Shown: positions 5,150 through 21,098 of the stretch, in pieces
Layout: every line of letters starts with the position of its first letter
Position numbering within the stretch: position 1 is the stretch's first letter
Assembly (NCBI GenBank): GCA_020632375.1
Contig: JACKFR010000002.1
Location: 118,771-182,770 of the forward strand
Direction: 5' to 3'
DNA from: Candidatus Nomurabacteria bacterium
GTDB taxonomy: Bacteria; Patescibacteriota; Dojkabacteria; SC72; JAHDCA01
DNA length: 64,000 nt
Program-made: the position numbers and the translations under genes
Notes under the pieces: generated by a model
The model's database searches: none
Seen by the model: only the letters and a program-made list of their open reading frames with translations
What the model was told of the DNA's origin: nothing

Positions 5150-7675
5150 TTAGTTTTCTTTTATTTCTCCACCAGTCTTCTTTGTGACTTCAGAGATTAC
5201 TTTGTTTCTGATTGTTCCAATTTCCTCTGAAGTAAGTGTCTTAGACCTCGGGGTAAGTGTTACTCTTATTGTAACCTGTTTTTGTTGATTCTCTGCTTGC
5301 TCCTGTGACTGGTAGATATCTACAATGTCTAAATTCATTAATACTTCAGATGGCTTAATTGATTCTATAGCTTCAGCAATATCTGAATATCGTAACTCAT
5401 GTTTTACTACAAAACAAAAGTCATTTGTAACTGAAGGATATTTTGAAGGTTCAATGTAATCACGGCTATTATTCGTTAACGACTTAATTACCGATAGGTC
5501 TAGCTCAAATCCTGATATAAAATTAGGAAGACTGAGCTTCTGTTTTGTTACAGATGAAAGCCCACCAATAACTCCTAGATAGTAGGTCTCTTTTTCTCTT
5601 TTTGTTGTTACTACTGCACTGGCATTTGGATCTAATCCGTTTAATAAGTCCTTGATCCATAGTGGACATTGTTTTTGGTCAGTGCTATCGACTGTATTAT
5701 ATTTACATCTTGAAACCCCTAGTGAAGTAAGAAGTTCTGAAGCATAAAGCTTTGACATATAATAAGGAGATCCCGAATATAGTGACTTTTCTGTTTTTCC
5801 GCCAGCCGCAAAGATAAGTGCAACAGATTGCAACTCTACAGGAAGCCCATCTTCTTGAAGGACGGTTTTATTATGAGACTTGTTTATCTCAAACAATGCC
5901 ATCTCAGTGTATCCTTCTCGAAGATTTTCATTCACTTTTTCTGTAACGGAAGGGAGTAATGAAGTTCTCATATACTCTAGTTCCGGAGACAGTGCATTCT
6001 TCAAGTGATAGGCATAATCAATATTTAGACCAAAGGATTTAAAAAGCTTCTGGCTTGTAAAGTTGTATGTCAGGATTTCATCAGCTCCGAATGAAGTCAA
6101 TTCTCGCCTTACTTTTTTCTGGAGTTCGACAGAGCTGTTAGGTTTTGCAGGAACTATTGTTTTATGCGGGAATGATATTTGTATTTTGTTATAGCCATAA
6201 AGACGACCAACCTCTTCGTGTATATCTTCTCGGATATTTAAGTCCCCTCTATATGTCGGTATATCAACAATTATTTCATCGCCACTGACTTTACTTGTTT
6301 TCAATTCGACATTTGTAAGAGTTACGCAGACATCATCAGCTTTAAAATGTGTGCCGAGATGAGCATTTAGTCTTTTTAATGAAATATGAATTTGTTTTGG
6401 CTCTCTTTTGATGAGATATGAGTCTTCTAAATCACTGGCAATCTTACCAGTCGCTAACTCTTTTACCATCTCAACAGCTTTTATGATTATTGGTTTGCAC
6501 TGGTTTGGATCTTGACCTTTTGAAAATCTCGTGACGGCATCGGTATAAATTCCAAGCCTCATTGACGACCTTCGGACATTATACATATCGAAGTTCGCAC
6601 ATTCGAGAAGAATATTCTTTGTATTTGAGTCAATTTCTGTATCAAGGCCTCCCATTATTCCACCTATTCCGATCGGGCTTTGGCTATCACAAATAACAAC
6701 TACGTTGTCCAGCAGGTTAACTGTTTTATCATCCAGAGTTGTTATAGTCTCCTCTTTCTTTGCTGTTCTTATGACTATATTTACAGTATCTTTCGAATTG
6801 GTATCTCTGGCCAGAATCTTATCGTAATCATATGCATGCATCGGCTGGCCTGTCAGGATCATCAGGTAGTTAGTTATATCGACAATATTGTTTACTGGTC
6901 GCAAGCCAACTTTTCTTAGGAGTGCTTGGAGCCACAAAGGAGAATCTCCAACTCTGATGTCTGACATCGAGATTGCAGTAAACCTATTACATAAGCTTTT
7001 TGCATCGTTCTGAATCTTTACAGGCAAGTTAATATCTGAATCTATTGTTATCGATTCTTCCGGATTCAGATACCAGTCAGGCGAAACAAAAGGAGTACAT
7101 TGAATACCTGCAATCTCTCTCGCTATACCAAGTACCCCGAAACAGTCTGCCCTATTTGCTAAGGCTTTGTTCTCAATATCGATGATTGTATCATTAAAGT
7201 CCATTACATCTGCAAAGCTTGTGCCAGGCACTTTATCGGTCTGAAGCCTCATTACAATTTTATGATTGTTTGATAAATCGAGTTCTTTTGCTGAAGCCAT
7301 CATTCCAACTGACTCTTTACCGCCTAGTTTTGCTGTGCCGACAACATTGTTGTTATCTACATTATTAAAATCTGATGGAAGCGTGATTCCAGGGGGAAAA
7401 TATGCAACTTTATCTCCTACTTGTAGTGTTCTATCTCCTGCTACAACTTGGACTGGGTTATTTTCTCCGATATTCAACTGATAGACAGCTAGCTTGTCTG
7501 AGTCAGCAATGTCTTGAGAGCTAACAACCTCTGCAACAAGAACGTTTTTATACACTTCGTTTAAGTTTTCGACCGTTTCAACCTCCCCTAGCTGAGCTCT
7601 AATCTTTGCGATGAGTTCTTCATCGTTGAGATTGATCGATGTGTATTGTCTAATCCAATTAAGAGGAACTTTCAT
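5150..7675 (-). CDS. pheT: phenylalanine--tRNA ligase beta subunit
   Basis: The track ORF is 5150..7726. I place the start at ATG 7675 (MKVPLNWIRQY..., a typical PheT N-terminus), 19 nt after the pheS stop. It follows pheS and contains a B3/4-type segment (RPVNNIVDITNYLMILTGQPMHAYD). Confidence 0.93.
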   Translation of the reverse strand: MKVPLNWIRQYTSINLNDEELIAKIRAQLGEVETVENLNEVYKNVLVAEVVSSQDIADSDKLAVYQLNIGENNPVQVVAGDRTLQVGDKVAYFPPGITLPSDFNNVDNNNVVGTAKLGGKESVGMMASAKELDLSNNHKIVMRLQTDKVPGTSFADVMDFNDTIIDIENKALANRADCFGVLGIAREIAGIQCTPFVSPDWYLNPEESITIDSDINLPVKIQNDAKSLCNRFTAISMSDIRVGDSPLWLQALLRKVGLRPVNNIVDITNYLMILTGQPMHAYDYDKILARDTNSKDTVNIVIRTAKKEETITTLDDKTVNLLDNVVVICDSQSPIGIGGIMGGLDTEIDSNTKNILLECANFDMYNVRRSSMRLGIYTDAVTRFSKGQDPNQCKPIIIKAVEMVKELATGKIASDLEDSYLIKREPKQIHISLKRLNAHLGTHFKADDVCVTLTNVELKTSKVSGDEIIVDIPTYRGDLNIREDIHEEVGRLYGYNKIQISFPHKTIVPAKPNSSVELQKKVRRELTSFGADEILTYNFTSQKLFKSFGLNIDYAYHLKNALSPELEYMRTSLLPSVTEKVNENLREGYTEMALFEINKSHNKTVLQEDGLPVELQSVALIFAAGGKTEKSLYSGSPYYMSKLYASELLTSLGVSRCKYNTVDSTDQKQCPLWIKDLLNGLDPNASAVVTTKREKETYYLGVIGGLSSVTKQKLSLPNFISGFELDLSVIKSLTNNSRDYIEPSKYPSVTNDFCFVVKHELRYSDIAEAIESIKPSEVLMNLDIVDIYQSQEQAENQQKQVTIRVTLTPRSKTLTSEEIGTIRNKVISEVTKKTGGEIKEN

Positions 7676-7694
7676 ACTTTTGTATATTGTAAAC

Positions 7695-8735
7695 TTAGAA
7701 TTGTTTAATGAAATTAAGGTTCCCACTATGGAGCCATCTTATATCTTCAATTCCATTTTTGATCATAACTAAACGATCTAAACCAAATCCCCAAGCAAAG
7801 CCTGAATATTTTTCCGGATCAAGGCCACCTTCTTTTAAAACATTGGGGTGAATCATTCCACAACCCATTGCTTCAATCCATCCCGTTTTCCCACAGATAT
7901 TGCATCCGGCTTGAGCACAGAACGGACAACTTATTAAAAATTCCAGATCAGGTTCAGTAAAAGGGAAAAACGCCGGCTGTACCTTTGCTTTAAGTTCAGT
8001 GTTGAAAAATGCTTCTAAGTAAGTTTTAATTGTTCCAATCATATCTCCCAATGATATCCCTTGGTCGACATACACTCCTTCAATCTGATGAAGAGTATGC
8101 TCATGACTGGCATCAGTCGCTTCGTTTCTATAGCAACGACCAGGAATCACAACGCGTATTGGTGGTTCGTATTTTCGAAGAACACGGTTTTGCATTGTCG
8201 AAGTGTGTGCTGGAGGAATAAGGTTTTCGTCGGTCCAAAATGTATCCCATAGATCTCTTGCAGGGTGTCCTTTGGGGAAGTTAAGTGCTTCAAACATATT
8301 ATAGTCGTTGTCTATTTGTCGACACTCTTCTATGTCAAATCCCATTGATGTAAAGATACCGAGGATATATTCTAGCTCTTGAGTTAGTGGATGCTGTGAC
8401 CCAGGTTGAGAAAGAAGTTTCGGTTTTTTTTCTTCCGGGGTATTAATGTCGAATTTGGCTGTTACATCTATTTGCTTTGAGGTAGATATCTTGTTTAGCT
8501 CGGTAAATGCTTTCTGTTCAAGACTTTCTTCAATGTATTGCTTGAGCGTGTTCGCTTCTTTTCCGTATTCTGCTCTCTTTTCTTTTGCTATTGTACCGAT
8601 TTTCTTAAGTTGAGAAGAAAAGAGTCCTTGTTTGCCGAGGTACTTTGCTTTAAGCTCTTTTGTAGATTTTTCAGATTTAAGGTCTCTTTCGATTTCTGTC
8701 GCCAGTTTCTTAAGATCAGAGTTTTTGTATTCCAT
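7695..8735 (-). CDS. pheS: phenylalanine--tRNA ligase alpha subunit
   Basis: 346 aa with class II aaRS/PheS motifs (GHPARDLWDTFW, CYRNEATDASHEHTLHQIEG, GFAWGFGLDRL). Sits immediately upstream of pheT. Confidence 0.95.
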   Translation of the reverse strand: MEYKNSDLKKLATEIERDLKSEKSTKELKAKYLGKQGLFSSQLKKIGTIAKEKRAEYGKEANTLKQYIEESLEQKAFTELNKISTSKQIDVTAKFDINTPEEKKPKLLSQPGSQHPLTQELEYILGIFTSMGFDIEECRQIDNDYNMFEALNFPKGHPARDLWDTFWTDENLIPPAHTSTMQNRVLRKYEPPIRVVIPGRCYRNEATDASHEHTLHQIEGVYVDQGISLGDMIGTIKTYLEAFFNTELKAKVQPAFFPFTEPDLEFLISCPFCAQAGCNICGKTGWIEAMGCGMIHPNVLKEGGLDPEKYSGFAWGFGLDRLVMIKNGIEDIRWLHSGNLNFIKQF

Positions 8736-8780
8736 CTGTTTTTGTTTCAGTTTATCTAAAAGATTATATCGGTTTTTAAC

Positions 8781-8811
8781 AAAAAAAGGGCCTTAATACT
8801 TTAAGGCCCCG
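8781..8811 (-). terminator. rho-independent terminator/attenuator between rplT and pheS
   Basis: The minus strand reads GGGCCTTAA-agta-TTAAGGCCC followed by TTTTTTT. It lies about 25 nt after the rplT stop. Confidence 0.75.
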
Positions 8812-8833
8812 GTAATCCAATTCAAAATTGAAC

Positions 8834-9172
8834 TTACAAGGACTTAACTATGCTGCTAAATGATTCCGGATATTTGAATGCAATTTCAGCAAGTGTTTTT
8901 TTGTTAAGTTCTGATTTAGAGTCTTTCAGCTTTTTCATTAATTCGCTATATTTGAGACCGTTTTGATTTGCTGCTGCTGAGATTCTGCTGATCCAAAGTC
9001 TTCTCATCTGACCTAATCTCTTTTTTCTATCATTGAATGAATACTGACCAGCGTGCATATATGATTCATGAGCAACTCTATAGAGTCTGCTCCTTGTCAT
9101 CCGATATCCTTTAGTTTTGGAAAGAATCTTGTTGTGTTTTCTTCGTCTTACTGTTCCGCCTTTGACTCTCAT
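8834..9172 (-). CDS. rplT: 50S ribosomal protein L20
   Basis: 112 aa, MRVKGGTVRRRKHNKILSKTKGYRMTRSRLYRVAHE... Conserved position after rpmI. Confidence 0.95.
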   Translation of the reverse strand: MRVKGGTVRRRKHNKILSKTKGYRMTRSRLYRVAHESYMHAGQYSFNDRKKRLGQMRRLWISRISAAANQNGLKYSELMKKLKDSKSELNKKTLAEIAFKYPESFSSIVKSL

Positions 9173-9192
9173 AATATGTGTTGATTAATTAA

Positions 9193-9411
9193 CTAGAGAC
9201 TTACTACTTTCTTATATTTTTTTGAGATTGTCTGATCAAGGTTTCTTCTTACTGACTTTCTTCTTTTTGCTCTTGTTGACTTTTTTGTCCTCAGATGGTG
9301 CTGAGCGCTTTGCTTGTACCTGATCTTTGGCTTTCTGTTCCCTTTCGGATTTGTCATCCTTAGACGTTTTAATGCTGTTTTGGGACTTTTTTTTGTCTTT
9401 GCTCGACCCAT
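9193..9411 (-). CDS. rpmI: 50S ribosomal protein L35
   Basis: The track ORF is 9193..9483. The internal ATG at 9411 gives a 72-aa basic protein, MGRAKTKKSPKTALKRLRMT...HHLRTKKSTRAKRRK, which is L35-like. An AGGA lies just upstream. It sits between infC and rplT. Confidence 0.85.
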   Translation of the reverse strand: MGRAKTKKSPKTALKRLRMTNPKGNRKPKIRYKQSAQHHLRTKKSTRAKRRKSVRRNLDQTISKKYKKVVSL

Positions 9412-9946
9412 TTCCTTTAAATGTAATAAATATGTCTCTACCTTGACGTTTAAGTTCGGGTTCGATACTACTATACTGTTCAAATTTAGTCAATATTCCG
9501 GTAAAAGTTGCTCTTGCCTGTTCCTCTGGTTGCCTACCTCGTCTTCTCATCGTTAGTTTTACATTATGCCCCTTTTCTAAATATTCAATAGCGCGTCTGA
9601 TCTTAAAAGCTGCATCATTCTCTGTAATGAGAGGCGTAAATCTAAACTCTTTCATCTCTTTGACTTTGCTAAGTTTTCTTCCTTTTCTCATCTTTTTTCT
9701 CTGCTCATATAGATATTTGGAGTAATCCATAATCTTGCATACCGGTGGTGTTGATTTGGGGTTAACCTCTACTAAATCCATTTCTGCTTCTTTTGCTTTT
9801 GACATTGCAACTTGAATTGGCACAGTGCCTAGATTCTCGCCATTGGAATCTATTAGGCTTACTTCTTGCGACCTAATATCATAGTTTTTTCTAAGTGAAT
9901 TGGTATCTTCTTTTCTAAAATTGCGCTGATAGTTTTTCTTGTACAT
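9236..9946 (-). CDS. infC: translation initiation factor IF-3 with a Lys-rich C-terminal tail
   Basis: IF3 hallmark sequence is present (EVSLIDSNGENLGTVPIQVAMSKAKEAEMDLVEVNPKSTPPVCKIMDYSKYLYEQRKK; HNVKLTMRRRGRQ). The IF3 core ends near ...RDIFITFKGNG. About 55 further K/S/D-rich codons overlap rpmI out of frame. Confidence 0.9.
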   Translation of the reverse strand: MYKKNYQRNFRKEDTNSLRKNYDIRSQEVSLIDSNGENLGTVPIQVAMSKAKEAEMDLVEVNPKSTPPVCKIMDYSKYLYEQRKKMRKGRKLSKVKEMKEFRFTPLITENDAAFKIRRAIEYLEKGHNVKLTMRRRGRQPEEQARATFTGILTKFEQYSSIEPELKRQGRDIFITFKGNGSSKDKKKSQNSIKTSKDDKSEREQKAKDQVQAKRSAPSEDKKVNKSKKKKVSKKKP

Positions 9947-9972
9947 ATAATGGAAATTAATTTAATTGAAAA

Positions 9973-11772
9973 CTATGCTCCTAGAGAGGGAGAAATATCT
10001 TTCTCCTTTATCTCTTTTAAAAGATGCTTGAGAAAAGTGTCTTTTTTGTGTAAGCCTTGGTCTTTCTTCCCTCTGACTCTAACTGAAACTGTAGAGGTTT
10101 CGATCTCCTTATCACCTACAACCAAAGTATATGGGATTTTATTTACTTCGGCATCTCTTATCTTATACTGCAATCTTTCATTTCTGTCGTCAAGCTCAAC
10201 TCTGACTTGTTTGTCCCACAGCTCTTGTTTAATTTCTTGGGCGTATTCTAGGTGTTTTTCTGAAATTGGGATCACCCTGACTTGGATAGGTGAAAGCCAA
10301 GTCGGAAATGCACCTGCATAATACTCTATCAAGAAGGCAATAATCCTTTCAAGGCATCCTATTGCAGATCGGTGTATTACAATAGCTTTCTTAAGTTCAC
10401 CGTCTTGATCTACATAGTTCAAATCAAATCTTTCAGGCATAACAAAATCATACTGAATCGTGAATGCCGTTTCTTCTTTTCCTAAAACATTTCTCATTTG
10501 GATGTCAATCTTTGGTCCGTAGAATGCAGCGTCACCTTCTTCTTCATAATATTCACACTCTTTGTTTTTCAAGACTTCTCGGAGTGCTTCCTCAGCTTCG
10601 TCCCAAGCATTATCATTTTTATAAAACTTTTTTTCGTCTTTTCTATCTCCGAGCGAAAGTTTGAATCTATAATTTTCACCCATCTTGAGACCGAAAACTT
10701 CAGTTATTTCTTGAATTAGGTCAATGACACCAGCCGCTTCAGATTTAGCTTGCTCTGCATTTGCACAGACAATATGTGCATCTGAAAGGCAGAAGCTTCT
10801 CACCCTGATTAGTCCACTCAGCTCGCCTGATTGCTCATATCTAAATAGCTTGGCGAGCTCAGCAATCCTCATAGGCAAATCTCGATAACTTCTCGGTTCG
10901 CTAAGATAAAGCTCAAAATGGTGAGGGCAAGTCATCGGCCTTAGCATGAACTTTTCGTCTTCGTCTTCAATCGGAGCGTACATAGAGTCTTTGTAATATG
11001 GGTAGTGCCCAGATTTCTCATACAGTTGCAGTCTTGCAATCTCTGGTGTAGAAACATGCTGGTATCCTCTAGCAATTTCCAGATCTACAATGAACCTTTC
11101 AAGCTCTCTTCTAATTGCTGCGCCTTTTGGTGTCCATAGTGGAAGCCCTTTTCCTACAGTCTCTGAAAAAACAAATAAGCCGAGTTCTTTACCGATTTTT
11201 CTGTGGTCTCTTTTTTTTGCCTCTTCAATGCGCTCTAGATATTCGTCCAAGTCTTTCTTTGATTCAAAAGCAGTCCCATAGATTCTGGTAAGCATTTTGT
11301 TTTTCTCATCTCCTTTCCAATATGCGCCTGCGATTCTGAGAAGCTTTATCGCTCCGATCTCTTTTGTTGAAGAGACATGTGGGCCTCTGCACATATCTAT
11401 AAATTCATCATCGCCTGTTACATAAAAACTGATCTCATCTCCTTCAATGTTGTTCAAAAGATCAAGCTTGTATTCTTGACCAAGAGCTTTGTATCTTTCA
11501 ACCACACCTTTTCTGTCTTTGAAGGTTTGCTTAAGTGACAAATCTCTCTTGATAATTTTCTTCATTTCTTTTTCAATTTTCTGTAGGACATCATCAGATA
11601 CTTGGGTCGGAAATTCAAAGTCGTAGTAAAAACCGTCTTCAATTGCTGGTCCAATTCCTAGCTTTGCCTCAGGGTAAAGACTCAGGACAGCTTGAGCAAG
11701 AACATGCGCTGCACTATGTCTCATTTTTTCAATTTGCGGTACGTCTATATTTTTATTGTTTTGATTACTCAT
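9973..11772 (-). CDS. thrS: threonine--tRNA ligase (no N-terminal TGS domain)
   Basis: 599 aa. It begins at the editing/second-additional domain (MRHSAAHVLAQAV...GPAIEDGFYYDFE). It has a class II core and an anticodon-binding domain, and heads the conserved thrS-infC-rpmI-rplT cluster. Confidence 0.95.
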   Translation of the reverse strand: MSNQNNKNIDVPQIEKMRHSAAHVLAQAVLSLYPEAKLGIGPAIEDGFYYDFEFPTQVSDDVLQKIEKEMKKIIKRDLSLKQTFKDRKGVVERYKALGQEYKLDLLNNIEGDEISFYVTGDDEFIDMCRGPHVSSTKEIGAIKLLRIAGAYWKGDEKNKMLTRIYGTAFESKKDLDEYLERIEEAKKRDHRKIGKELGLFVFSETVGKGLPLWTPKGAAIRRELERFIVDLEIARGYQHVSTPEIARLQLYEKSGHYPYYKDSMYAPIEDEDEKFMLRPMTCPHHFELYLSEPRSYRDLPMRIAELAKLFRYEQSGELSGLIRVRSFCLSDAHIVCANAEQAKSEAAGVIDLIQEITEVFGLKMGENYRFKLSLGDRKDEKKFYKNDNAWDEAEEALREVLKNKECEYYEEEGDAAFYGPKIDIQMRNVLGKEETAFTIQYDFVMPERFDLNYVDQDGELKKAIVIHRSAIGCLERIIAFLIEYYAGAFPTWLSPIQVRVIPISEKHLEYAQEIKQELWDKQVRVELDDRNERLQYKIRDAEVNKIPYTLVVGDKEIETSTVSVRVRGKKDQGLHKKDTFLKHLLKEIKEKDISPSLGA

Positions 11773-18878: not shown

Positions 18879-20840
18879 CTATTTTACTACTATCCGTCTG
18901 ACTTTTTTACCGACTTTAAGTATTTGGCTTGTTTTCAGATGTAAATCTGCTTTCCAATCATCAAGTTTTTCACTATCTAGAGTCACAGCTCCCTGCTCGA
19001 TAAGTCTTTTTGCTTGGCTTGAACTTGGTATAAGGTCGGACTTTTCAGTGAGAAGTTTAATAATGTTAATCGATGGTCTATCAACTTCTAATTCTTCTAT
19101 TTCTGTGTCAAAACTTTGATTCTGGAAAACTTCTTCAAAGAATTTCTGCGCACTTTCTGCTTCTTGTTCACCCTTGAGGTCTCTTGTAAGAGTAAGGGCA
19201 AGCTCTTTTTTAAGATCCATCGGATTGATTCCTTGATCGAGCCTGCTTTGCATTTGATCTATTACATCAAGGTCAGTATTTGTCAGCAATTCAAAGCCTT
19301 CCAATATTAGTTGGTCGGGAAAAGCCATGACTTTACCGTAAATATCATTTGCGCTATCAATCAGAGAGATCATATTCCCTTCTGATTTACCCATTTTTGC
19401 GCCTTCGGCTGTTGTTAAAAGCTTTCCGGCTATTACGAATTTTTCTTTATTTAACCTGGCTTTCACCAGGTGTCTTCCTGCAAGCATATTGAAAAGTTGA
19501 TCATTTCCACCTAGTTCTATATCTACTTCAAGCTGAACTGAATCCCAGCCTTGCATTAAAGGATACATAAACTCATGAAGAAAAATCGGACGATCTTCAT
19601 CAACTCTCCTTCTAAACATATCTCTTTTAAGCATTTGCTGGACTGTAAATTCTGACGCAATATCTACTACCTCACTAAATGAAAGCTTTCCGAGCCAATC
19701 ATTATTAAAAACAATCTTTACAGGATTGTCTTTATTGTCGACATCTAATATTGAATTTGCTTGTTCTTTATACAGTTTCAGATTCTCATTTATTTGTTTA
19801 GGTGTCAGAGTTTTCCGGGCAGACGCTTTATCTGTTGGGTCTCCGATCCGAGCCGTAAAGTCGCCTATAAGCATGTGCACTTCGTGTCCGAGCTTTCTGA
19901 AATCTTCAAGCTTGCGCATCATCACTATATGACCAATATGAAGTGTTGCTGCAGTCGGATCAAAACCCTGGTATATTTTGAGTCTTCGCCCTGACTGAAG
20001 TAAATCTGCGAGAGCTTCTTTTGTCGGCAATATTTCTTCTACAGCTTTATTAAGTATTCGGTCAATAATTTTCTTATCCCTCTTAATTTCTTTTGTAATA
20101 ATCTGAATCTGCTGAGAAGACTTCAGAGATATCATCTCGTCTGTATGAAGTAAAGGGTTGTCTTTTGAAATAATTCCAAAGCTAGTTTCAACTTCTCCTG
20201 AAAACTCTTCGATTGCCGCTACAATCTCTTCTGCAATGTCTTTTATTTCTTCTTCGCTTTTGGAAAGACCATTAATAAAAATCAGGATATTTTTTGTTTC
20301 ATTACTTGTTAGGTCTTTTATACCTTGTCGCCAACACCACTTACGTGTAAGGACGCTCTCCTGATCTGCGTGGACAATTTCGTCTACAGAAACTTCTTGA
20401 GGTTCTTCTGTTTGCCTTGATACAAATTTAAGACCTTTTTCATTCATTCCGACAGTGATATCGCCGCTGATCTTATCAAAATCATGTGCTCCTATTGGAA
20501 CTAAGTGTTCTATTTGGACTGCATTTATTATGTTTACAATCGGGTTAATGTTTGGTAAATCTACCGGTTCAATGACTCGGTTTAACAAGCTCACATGTGA
20601 CGGGAGGCTGTTTGTTTTAGAGAATCCGAGATTTTCGAAAACTTTCATCCATGGTGTAAGTTCCGAAATATCTTCAATGCTTTTTTTCAAATGCTTTACC
20701 CTTACTCTATCCATTTGAGAGCAGAGATACTGATATGAATGATCTGAGTTTGCATTGTTATTTAGATTCTTGACAAAAAGCACCCCTTCTTTCAGTTTAG
20801 GGAATGTGTCAAACAGCTTGTTTTGGATCTCTACTTGCAT
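18879..20840 (-). CDS. tyrS: tyrosine--tRNA ligase fused to an N-terminal B3/4 (PheRS-beta-type) domain
   Basis: Residues from about 255 to 653 form a TyrRS: HIGH (TLHIGHIVMM), KMSKS (KMGKSEGN) and a C-terminal S4-like domain. Residues 1 to about 235 match the standalone B3/4-domain family pattern (DLPNINPIVNIINAVQIEHLVPIGAHDFDKISGDITV...VLTRKWCWRQ). Confidence 0.9.
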   Translation of the reverse strand: MQVEIQNKLFDTFPKLKEGVLFVKNLNNNANSDHSYQYLCSQMDRVRVKHLKKSIEDISELTPWMKVFENLGFSKTNSLPSHVSLLNRVIEPVDLPNINPIVNIINAVQIEHLVPIGAHDFDKISGDITVGMNEKGLKFVSRQTEEPQEVSVDEIVHADQESVLTRKWCWRQGIKDLTSNETKNILIFINGLSKSEEEIKDIAEEIVAAIEEFSGEVETSFGIISKDNPLLHTDEMISLKSSQQIQIITKEIKRDKKIIDRILNKAVEEILPTKEALADLLQSGRRLKIYQGFDPTAATLHIGHIVMMRKLEDFRKLGHEVHMLIGDFTARIGDPTDKASARKTLTPKQINENLKLYKEQANSILDVDNKDNPVKIVFNNDWLGKLSFSEVVDIASEFTVQQMLKRDMFRRRVDEDRPIFLHEFMYPLMQGWDSVQLEVDIELGGNDQLFNMLAGRHLVKARLNKEKFVIAGKLLTTAEGAKMGKSEGNMISLIDSANDIYGKVMAFPDQLILEGFELLTNTDLDVIDQMQSRLDQGINPMDLKKELALTLTRDLKGEQEAESAQKFFEEVFQNQSFDTEIEELEVDRPSINIIKLLTEKSDLIPSSSQAKRLIEQGAVTLDSEKLDDWKADLHLKTSQILKVGKKVRRIVVK

Positions 20841-21098
20841 GGCTGTTTAAAGTAAAATTAATTGTTGACGCTTTAAAAACAAAACGCCTTTGCATAAGTT
20901 CTCAAAAACTCACACAAAGGCGCTCTTACCCGCGGTACCACTCTGTTTCATTGGGAAACCCAATGCACTCATTTAAATTGCTCAAGGGTGTAATTCGGCT
21001 GGCTAATGCCAATTTGCAAACTCTCAGCCTTTGTTTGCTCTCTGTCTTATGCCTACTCTACCCTGTCACAGCAAATATTTAGTTAAGAGATTATACCA
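20841..21098 (-). promoter_or_regulatory. T-box riboswitch leader (Tyr specifier UAC) with extended -10 promoter, upstream of tyrS
   Basis: - Read on the minus strand, the promoter is TGGTATAAT (21098-21090).
- The Stem I base pairs TTGCT/AGCAA with GA (K-turn-like) motifs.
- The specifier loop has AGUA...GAA-U-UAC-A, with UAC at 20992-20990.
- An AGAGA bulge and a GCAAAC/GTTTGC distal hairpin follow.
- Stem III is CATTGGG-ttt-CCCAATG.
- The T-box sequence is AGAGTGGTACCGCGGG (20944-20929).
- UGGU complements an A73-CCA end. Confidence 0.85.
20875..20924 (-). terminator. T-box attenuator terminator
   Basis: The minus strand reads GCGCCTTTG...(22-nt partly paired loop)...CAAAGGCG followed by TTTTGTTTTT. 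The 5' arm overlaps the region that can pair with the T-box sequence to form the antiterminator. Confidence 0.75.

Follow-up and report, generated by a model that had tools for sequence, protein, structure and literature searches.

A CtdA-like B3/4 domain fused to bacterial-type tyrosyl-tRNA synthetase in Dojkabacteria, a candidate cis-editing module

Tyrosyl-tRNA synthetase (TyrRS) is the textbook case of a synthetase that relies on the selectivity of its active site and possesses no editing domain. It is known to be weak against D-tyrosine (D-Tyr) and ring-modified tyrosines, and such errors are either corrected by DTD, acting in trans, or left uncorrected. A gene on a stretch of 64,000 nucleotides from the genome of a tiny uncultured bacterium of the Dojkabacteria (WS6), within the candidate phyla radiation, referred to here as the window, raises the question whether this picture is complete. 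The tyrS gene of this genome (18879..20840, minus strand) starts with ATG and encodes 653 amino acids followed by a stop codon, and in its product a TyrRS is preceded by a B3/4 domain that resembles the deacylase CtdA. What could such a domain contribute to TyrRS? We consider it probable, at roughly 60%, that it acts as a cis post-transfer editing domain which would clear tRNA(Tyr) charged with a look-alike of tyrosine.

The protein is composed of four parts, all encoded on the minus strand. Residues 1-235 (20136..20840) form the N-terminal CtdA-like B3/4 domain, as delimited by Pfam B3_4, phmmer, AlphaFold2 (AF2) and Foldseek. A linker (residues 236-255, 20076..20135), recognized when 37 fused TyrRS were aligned with 82 unfused ones, leads into the Rossmann-fold catalytic core with its alpha-helical domain (residues 256-573, 19122..20075; PF00579, TIGR00234), and the C-terminus is made up by the S4-like tRNA-binding domain of bacterial TyrRS (residues 574-653, 18882..19121; PF22421). 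The Pfam model B3_4 (PF03483) matches residues 77-194 with E=3.2e-19 and 69.6 bits against a cutoff of 29.3, the match covering only positions 15-129 of the 174 in the profile. In the synthetase part, tRNA-synt_1b (PF00579), the class I core of tryptophanyl- and tyrosyl-tRNA synthetases, is found on residues 284-573 (E=1e-65), SYY_C-terminal (PF22421) on residues 575-636 (27.2 bits, cutoff 27) with a weak S4 match beside it, and the NCBIfam tyrS equivalog TIGR00234 on residues 256-646 with 351 bits against a cutoff of 113.8. The model for archaeal-type TyrRS, PRK08560, stays far under its cutoff (99 versus 220). The signature motifs of class I synthetases are present as LHIGH at residues 300-304 (HIGH from H301 to H304, 19929-19940) and KMGKS at residues 482-486 (19383-19397). 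The N-terminal domain contains the stretches DLPNINPIVNIINAVQIEHLVPIGAHDFDKISGDI at residues 94-128 (DLPNINP...GDI) and RKWCWRQ at residues 166-172. The earlier note on this DNA, made from the sequence without database searches, had described a complete TyrRS with HIGH, KMGKS and an S4-like C-terminus, with some 235 residues of the standalone, COG3382-like B3/4 family ahead of it. The scan with domain models that it proposed returned significant matches for both B3_4 and TyrRS, and both halves of the description are borne out by these matches, by the motifs and by the similarity to CtdA set out below.

In the synthetase half the residues of the HIGH and KMSKS motifs are invariant or nearly so in 37 orthologues, and Y290 (in YQGFDPT) and D433 (in MQGWDS) are invariant across the family. 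We take the latter two, mapped by motif and not by structural superposition, to be the equivalents of the tyrosine-hydroxyl-binding residues Tyr34 and Asp176 of the Bacillus stearothermophilus enzyme. The closest relative in the Protein Data Bank (PDB) is the bacterial TyrRS 6bqy (E=1.9e-74), and the alignment with 6bqy/6byq runs from end to end including the C-terminal domain. Judged by these models, motifs and relatives, the synthetase half is a bacterial-type TyrRS of class Ic, and the gene is best explained as the housekeeping tyrS of the organism, whose product is predicted to aminoacylate tRNA(Tyr).

An identical protein of 653 amino acids is encoded in two independent assemblies (Logan contig SRR12358675 and NCBI GCA_020429345.1), its database name being "tyrosine--tRNA ligase [Candidatus Dojkabacteria bacterium]". 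The survey of the architecture across genomes that the earlier note had suggested yielded 36 further, non-identical full-length clusters of the Dojkabacteria type with PF03483 and PF00579 in one protein (43-71% identity, 640-677 amino acids) and one additional fragment of 585 amino acids; among the loci listed from a scan of genomic DNA, described below, the fusion occurs in Dojkabacteria and Chloroflexota. The fused clusters stem from NCBI, JGI, ENA and Logan and align end to end. Other Dojkabacteria possess ordinary unfused TyrRS of 405-411 amino acids, whose N-termini correspond to residues 239-250 of the fusion. The AF2 model of the full-length protein reached a pLDDT (predicted local distance difference test) of 88.3 and a pTM (predicted template modelling score) of 0.84, and in this model residues 241-255 of the linker are without regular secondary structure.

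Which kind of B3/4 domain has been joined to TyrRS? Among solved structures, phmmer places the N-terminal domain closest to CtdA (9f7e, E=2.6e-12; 9mkl, E=2.9e-8), while the beta chains of phenylalanyl-tRNA synthetase (PheRS) follow with E=2e-3 or worse. The AF2 model of residues 1-235 (pLDDT 95.6) gave the same ranking in Foldseek, with E=1.9e-18 and TM-scores of 0.82/0.83 over 228 columns for 9f7e, E about 1e-18 and 0.84/0.87 over 227-228 columns for 9mkl, and E about 1e-9 with a TMq of about 0.55 for PheRS beta chains. CtdA, a canavanyl-tRNA(Arg) deacylase, was found in 2023 and its structures followed in 2024-25 (PMC10018355; bioRxiv 2024.11.30.626143; PMC12449066). It combines the B3/B4 fold with a helical insert of its own, and its pocket is formed by N105, G116, E118, C166, Q173, I189, E191 and Y104, of which Asn105 and Gly116 (Salmonella enterica numbering) are reported to be essential (PMC12449066) and common to CtdA and PheRS. 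The model of the N-terminal domain displays the full-length fold of about 230 residues together with the CtdA-type insert. By fold and descent, as far as alignment and model tell, the domain is a member of the CtdA family, and by its signature it is not a canavanyl-tRNA deacylase.

The term "PheRS-type" used in the earlier note holds insofar as the domain belongs to PF03483; its closest relatives are CtdA proteins, however, and PheRS beta is remote. With the B3/4 domain of PheRS beta it has the Pfam family, the core fold and the Asn of the T-N-Y motif in common. The comparison with the PheRS editing pocket that the note recommended places Gly117 at the position of PheRS His265, and Gly318 and Glu334 of E. 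coli PheRS have no counterpart in the domain that could be aligned by sequence. In contrast to PheRS, the domain is not set between B1/B2 and B5, and the fusion contains no B1, B2 or B5 at all. We also considered the possibility that a displaced or duplicated PheRS editing domain had been captured. The window itself encodes PheT (5150-7726, minus strand; 858 amino acids) with tRNA_bind, B3_4, B5, core and FDX-ACB domains. Its B3_4 domain is complete (194.5 bits) and retains the equivalents of E. coli R244, T253-N254-Y255, H265, Gly318 and E334. Only 35 columns align between this protein and the N-terminal domain of the fusion (hhalign E=1e-3), and a hidden Markov model of the latter does not detect the PheT of the window at E<=10. 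The idea was therefore rejected: since PheT keeps an intact B3/4 domain with its editing residues, the domain on TyrRS has not been relocated from PheRS, nor is it a recent duplicate of the PheRS editor.

The pocket itself was compared by transferring the CtdA residues onto the fusion via phmmer alignments. The predicted aminoacyl pocket consists of Asn106 (20523-20525), Gly117, His119 (20484-20486), Thr165 (20346-20348), Cys169, Phe188 and Asn190, all on the minus strand. CtdA Asn105, Gly116 and Gln173 are retained as N106, G117 and Q172, the Gln being kept in most relatives. Glu118, Cys166, Asn170, Ile189, Glu191 and Tyr104 of CtdA, on the other hand, are replaced by His119, Thr165, Cys169 (Val or Cys in the group), Phe188 (Pro in most relatives), Asn190 (Asp in most relatives) and Ile105, respectively. 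Glu118 and Glu191, two of the exchanged residues, bind canavanine in CtdA. According to this mapping the fusion keeps the parts of the CtdA pocket implicated in placing the ester and the water, and has exchanged those that accommodate the canavanine side chain. In the 37 orthologues sequence conservation is lower in the N-terminal domain as a whole than in the synthetase (mean column identity 40% versus 53%), and the invariant residues of the domain are N103, P115, G117, H119, G126, F139, D159 and T165; N106, R166, E154, S81 and H82 are conserved in at least 90%. Canavanine is an unlikely substrate, because the partner of the domain is TyrRS and not the arginyl-tRNA synthetase ArgRS.

The wider family shows that pocket and partner go together. 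An exhaustive profile search with the N-terminal domain against 1.84 billion representative proteins returned 3,499 relatives with E<=1e-3, of which 287 have E<=1e-30; among the top 150, free-standing proteins of about 233 amino acids occur side by side with long fusions. Besides TyrRS, the partners identified by Pfam scan of the representatives are ArgRS, class I lysyl-tRNA synthetase (LysRS), class II synthetases of the Asp/Lys/Asn type and a tRNA_bind OB domain. On ArgRS the domain is located at the N-terminus (P0140, P0148, P0166, P0175, P0198, P0238, P0246 and about 19 more), and in P0122 two tandem copies precede an ArgRS; on class I LysRS (P0133, P0207, P0151) and on the class II synthetases with their OB fold (P0144, P0181, P0217, P0213) it occurs at either end. 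When the pocket columns of 186 classified domains were compared, N106, G117 and R166 proved common to all partner groups. In the TyrRS-fused domains the position of CtdA Glu118 is His in 56 of 58 and that of Cys166 is Thr in equally many, followed by Val/Cys, Pro/Phe and Asp/Asn, the last of these, at the position of Glu191, being Asp in 47 and Asn in 10. The ArgRS-fused domains exhibit the experimentally defined pattern of CtdA, that is Glu (24/26), Cys (16/26) and Asn (22/26), and the three domains on class I LysRS carry Asp and Cys throughout; taking LysRS-type fusions of both classes together, the pocket has Asp (or Glu/Gln) with Cys. Two TyrRS-fused domains, P0231 with Asp/Cys and P0143 with Tyr/Cys, deviate from this rule. 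The same two are the exceptions in a neighbour-joining ordering, in which the His/Thr domains form one block with fused and free-standing members interleaved. The Glu/Cys pocket on ArgRS predicts cis-editing of canavanyl-tRNA(Arg), and the Asp/Cys pocket of the Lys-type fusions suggests proofreading of lysine analogues. The family appears to serve at least three synthetases that are said to lack editing domains, namely TyrRS, ArgRS and LysRS.

How often has this coupling arisen? One genome per GTDB species was scanned with a degenerate DNA pattern for E-x4-D-x5-T-R-x-W-x-W-R-Q, in which His119 was left unspecified. At least 120 loci were found, and 118 of the 120 listed encode the domain. Both His and Thr are present in all 114 of the listed loci with a scorable column, and ten of the loci listed are fused to TyrRS (two from Dojkabacteria and eight from Chloroflexota, including Chlorohelix and Chloroheliaceae). 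The remaining listed loci are free-standing and belong to Syntrophia/Thermodesulfobacteriota, Clostridia/Bacillota, Chloroflexota, Burkholderiales, Atribacteria, Sumerlaeota, Saccharimonadia and others. A profile search of a collection of 5.8 billion proteins gave 451 matches at E<=1e-10, with His/Thr in 117 of the best 120; among these are proteins from Clostridium sardiniense (P0306), Caloramator sp. E03, Paenibacillus kribbensis (P0385) and an Acholeplasma. These are annotated as nothing more than "B3/B4 domain-containing" or "phenylalanine--tRNA ligase beta subunit-related". The TyrRS half of the protein studied here shares 59-64% identity with unfused TyrRS of Dojkabacteria, 51-56% with the other fused Dojkabacteria enzymes and 33-49% with fused TyrRS of other lineages. 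Since it is closer to unfused Dojkabacteria enzymes than to fused TyrRS elsewhere, the architecture must have been gained and/or lost several times. As far as these sequences allow, such recurrence argues for a functional coupling of this domain type with TyrRS and not for a single frozen accident.

Upstream of the gene, the predicted regulation points to tRNA(Tyr). A putative T-box leader lies directly before the fusion gene (20913..21078, minus strand) and aligns with the full Rfam model RF00230 (positions 1-219), although with E=6e-15 and 68.5 bits it stays under the gathering score of 93. In its specifier loop, GAA-U-UAC-A, the tyrosine codon UAC at 20992-20990, assigned by register with the Rfam consensus alignment, is followed by the conserved purine A20989, and the UGGU of the T-box bulge (20940-20937) would be able to base-pair with a 3' end reading ACCA. 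A terminator scan revealed an intrinsic-terminator hairpin with a U-run (20881..20926, minus strand; a 20-pair stem with six G-C pairs, then GTTTTT), which shares positions with the 3' part of the T-box element and, judged by this arrangement, would be the attenuator of the tyrS leader. Since a UAC T-box and a terminator precede the gene, the whole fusion is apparently set up to respond to uncharged tRNA(Tyr); this response, predicted from the leader, is what would be expected for the working tyrS of the cell. At the other fused loci a T-box was met only as a weak match at a locus from Chloroflexia (L017), and none was found before two other Dojkabacteria fusion genes.

From the architecture, the fold and family of the N-terminal domain, its conservation and partner-specific pocket, the recurrent fusion and the predicted Tyr T-box we infer the following reaction cycle. 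The Rossmann-fold site would charge tRNA(Tyr). Whenever a non-cognate look-alike of tyrosine has been attached, the 3' CCA end would be passed to the N-terminal domain, where the ester would be hydrolysed by a water molecule set by the Asn106/Gly117 region, as has been proposed for Asn105 of CtdA and Asn254 of PheRS. The side chain would be held by His119, Thr165, Val/Cys169, Pro/Phe188 and Asp/Asn190 instead of Glu118, Cys166, Asn170, Ile189 and Glu191 of CtdA; an aromatic side chain with a hydroxyl group would fit well onto a floor of His and Asp/Asn between walls of Val and Pro. We assume that cognate L-Tyr-tRNA(Tyr) is spared because the pocket rejects it, because EF-Tu protects it, or both; for CtdA this has been shown with Arg-tRNA(Arg). 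Candidates for the rejected amino acid are a ring-modified analogue, such as meta-tyrosine (m-Tyr) or L-DOPA, or else D-Tyr, and the sequence does not decide between them. TyrRS, which is described as lacking an editing domain, discriminates against D-Tyr only 19-24-fold (PMC6765224), m-Tyr is charged by E. coli TyrRS in vitro (PMC4066437), and L-DOPA and other ring-modified tyrosines are reported to enter proteins (PMC9050441).

Several points weigh against this assignment. The polar His/Asp floor could bind cognate tyrosine equally well, which would be futile in cis, and the deacylase activity of every His/Thr-type member is a prediction. Most His/Thr-type genes are free-standing, are not located beside tyrS and have no T-boxes: among the loci listed from the DNA scan no tyrS neighbour was found beside the free-standing genes, and a simple motif scan of their upstream regions detected no T-box. 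Because of this the link to tRNA(Tyr) has to be drawn from the fusions. Tyr104 of CtdA, reported to be catalytically important, corresponds to Ile105 in the protein studied here and varies between Y, I, L, A and T across the TyrRS-fused domains. The subclade to which this protein belongs (P0001-P0010 and P0123) carries Cys169, Phe188 and Asn190 (residues 169-190, window positions 20271-20336) where most His/Thr-type domains have Val, Pro and Asp. Such a derived pocket could reflect altered specificity or relaxed function, and we regard it as suggestive of a secondary specificity shift within Dojkabacteria. Finally, the active site of TyrRS in the fused Dojkabacteria enzymes looks ordinary and gives no sign of relaxed specificity. 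A relaxed active site was looked for by comparing 37 fused with 82 unfused Dojkabacteria enzymes and was discarded as an explanation, given that only L365/I and H422/N differ consistently; with just two columns setting the fused enzymes apart, the synthetase itself does not reveal why editing should be required.

The earlier note had offered two functions for the N-terminal domain, proofreading or an additional tRNA-binding module. The conservation of the catalytic Asn and Gly together with a partner-specific pocket, in fused as well as free-standing members, favours the former, and we consider it unlikely that the domain is a non-catalytic module for binding or handover, which would raise the affinity for tRNA(Tyr) or channel Tyr-tRNA(Tyr). 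Synthetases of candidate phyla do acquire RNA-binding modules derived from PheRS, as exemplified by the B2-TyrRS of WS6/Dojkabacteria (PMC5370408), and in the 375-amino-acid protein P0125, which has no synthetase part, a domain of this His/Thr type is coupled with a tRNA_bind OB domain; a binding role would also be in keeping with the lack of conservation of CtdA Tyr104 in the TyrRS-fused group. The invariant or nearly invariant residues N106, G117, H119, T165 and R166, however, sit in the predicted aminoacyl pocket and not on a generic RNA surface. Hundreds of free-standing proteins of 233 amino acids keep the signature, so that an autonomous function is needed, and the only characterized relatives are hydrolases. 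In addition, the pocket co-varies with the fused synthetase, as would be expected for recognition of an amino acid and not for binding of the tRNA backbone.

Alternatively, the domain might be an active deacylase for a product of another synthetase, for example one that edits Tyr-tRNA(Phe) in trans, with the fusion serving co-expression or localization. The homologous domain of PheRS strips Tyr and m-Tyr from tRNA(Phe), the His/Asp floor would suit a phenolic hydroxyl, and free-standing His/Thr-type proteins lack a genomic link to tyrS. Yet the PheRS beta subunit of the same genome retains a B3/4 domain with the equivalents of R244, T253-N254-Y255, H265 and E334, and in the B3/B4 domain of PheRS, the editing domain of AlaRS and the deacylation domain of ProRS the cis-editor corrects the tRNA of its own enzyme. 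A tyrosine-specific hydrolase beside the source of Tyr-tRNA(Tyr) would moreover be counter-selected, and still the fusion arose or was kept in several lineages. On these grounds we judge such a function to be quite unlikely. An artefact, in which a sequencing error, an overlooked stop codon or frameshift, or a chimeric contig had merged two neighbouring genes, as can happen in metagenome-assembled genomes like the source of the window, is effectively excluded by the identical product in two independent assemblies, the same continuous reading frame in 36 diverged clusters from four data sources, ten fused genes found directly in the DNA of GTDB representative genomes from two phyla, and the confident full-length AF2 model.

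If the N-terminal domain is a cis-editor of TyrRS, how does it relate to known systems? The earlier note knew of no characterized TyrRS with a B3/4 domain, and in line with this the open-access papers and bioRxiv preprints searched contain nothing relevant on B3/B4 domains in connection with TyrRS, ArgRS or editing, nor any description of CtdA-like domains fused to ArgRS. The three papers on CtdA do not mention fusions (PMC10018355; bioRxiv 2024.11.30.626143; PMC12449066). The published CtdA phylogeny kept only sequences of 180-260 residues, a length filter that would have taken out the fusions. Unlike CtdA, which is free-standing (PDB 9f7e, 9mkl; PMC10018355; PMC12449066), the domain described here is fused to TyrRS, despite significant sequence similarity, the same fold and the same helical insert. 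TyrRS-type domains may overlap with the uncharacterized "CtdA-2" clade from Chloroflexi and Bacillota. The only TyrRS fusion described for WS6 joins the OB-fold B2 to a TyrRS of the archaeal type (Mukai et al., 2017, PMC5370408). That protein, found in WS6/Dojkabacteria and in activated-sludge bacteria, occurs in the same candidate phylum as ours and likewise has a module related to PheRS beta N-terminal to TyrRS; there, however, an RNA-binding OB domain is combined with an archaeal/eukaryal-type TyrRS (PMC5370408), whereas here a hydrolase-type B3/4 fold is combined with a bacterial-type TyrRS bearing an S4-like C-terminus. With DTD the fusion would share the task of meeting the best-documented lapse in TyrRS fidelity, the discrimination of D-Tyr by a factor of only about 19-24 (PMC6765224), and yet the folds are unrelated, and DTD is free-standing and reads chirality and not the side chain. 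No DTD is encoded within the 64-kb window. The use of one hydrolase family both in trans and fused follows the same logic as the appended cis-editors of PheRS (B3/4), AlaRS and ProRS and the free-standing AlaX, ProXp-ala and YbaK proteins; in the literature searched no such domain is described for TyrRS. What is new here is a CtdA-family domain with a new type of pocket, in cis on a synthetase believed to be without editing, its deacylase function being predicted. This suggests that a synthetase described as lacking a proofreading domain has repeatedly acquired one.

On a more general level, the CtdA-like fold may represent a modular, specificity-coded proofreading cassette that has been captured repeatedly by TyrRS, ArgRS, class I LysRS and class II synthetases of the Lys/Asp/Asn type, with Glu/Cys coding for arginine, Asp/Cys for lysine and His/Thr for tyrosine analogues in the pocket. 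We put this forward tentatively and rate its chances as not quite even. If it applies, some bacteria would possess genuine post-transfer editing by TyrRS, and a conserved and recurrent union of TyrRS with a domain from a deacylase family would change the view of TyrRS as an enzyme without editing. The CtdA family would widen from a canavanine-specific curiosity to a general proofreading module that can be re-targeted, and the fusions would become Rosetta stones from which the substrates of thousands of free-standing orphan B3/B4 proteins could be read, some of them from Clostridium and Paenibacillus that can be cultivated. A partner-specific pocket code would translate into testable substrate predictions for a very large family of proteins without annotation (3,499 representative clusters, E<=1e-3), and on this natural scaffold deacylases directed at particular analogues could be engineered for expansion of the genetic code. 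Such a role would also fit the idea that ultra-small bacteria scavenging amino acids offset uncontrolled amino-acid pools by extra quality control.

Some further observations concern gene neighbourhoods and unusual architectures. The genes next to the fusion gene (rarA/mgsA, an M20 peptidase gene, recG and lexA) are housekeeping genes, so this context provides no clue to the substrate. The pheT gene of the window is part of a classical thrS-infC-(rpmI)-rplT-pheS-pheT cluster (5150-11772, minus strand), whose ThrRS of 599 amino acids comprises tRNA_SAD, core and anticodon domains, with no TGS domain among those listed. The protein P0124 (825 amino acids) combines a YbaK-type tRNA_edit domain, a His/Thr-type B3/4 domain and TyrRS and thus carries two putative editing domains. 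On about 10-13 Syntrophia/Thermodesulfobacteriota-like contigs (within the range L003-L122, for example L018, L060 and L062) a free-standing His/Thr-type gene is located directly downstream of atpGDC, the genes for ATP synthase gamma, beta and epsilon, on the same strand, an adjacency that probably constitutes lineage-specific synteny and was the only recurrent neighbourhood of such genes among the loci listed.

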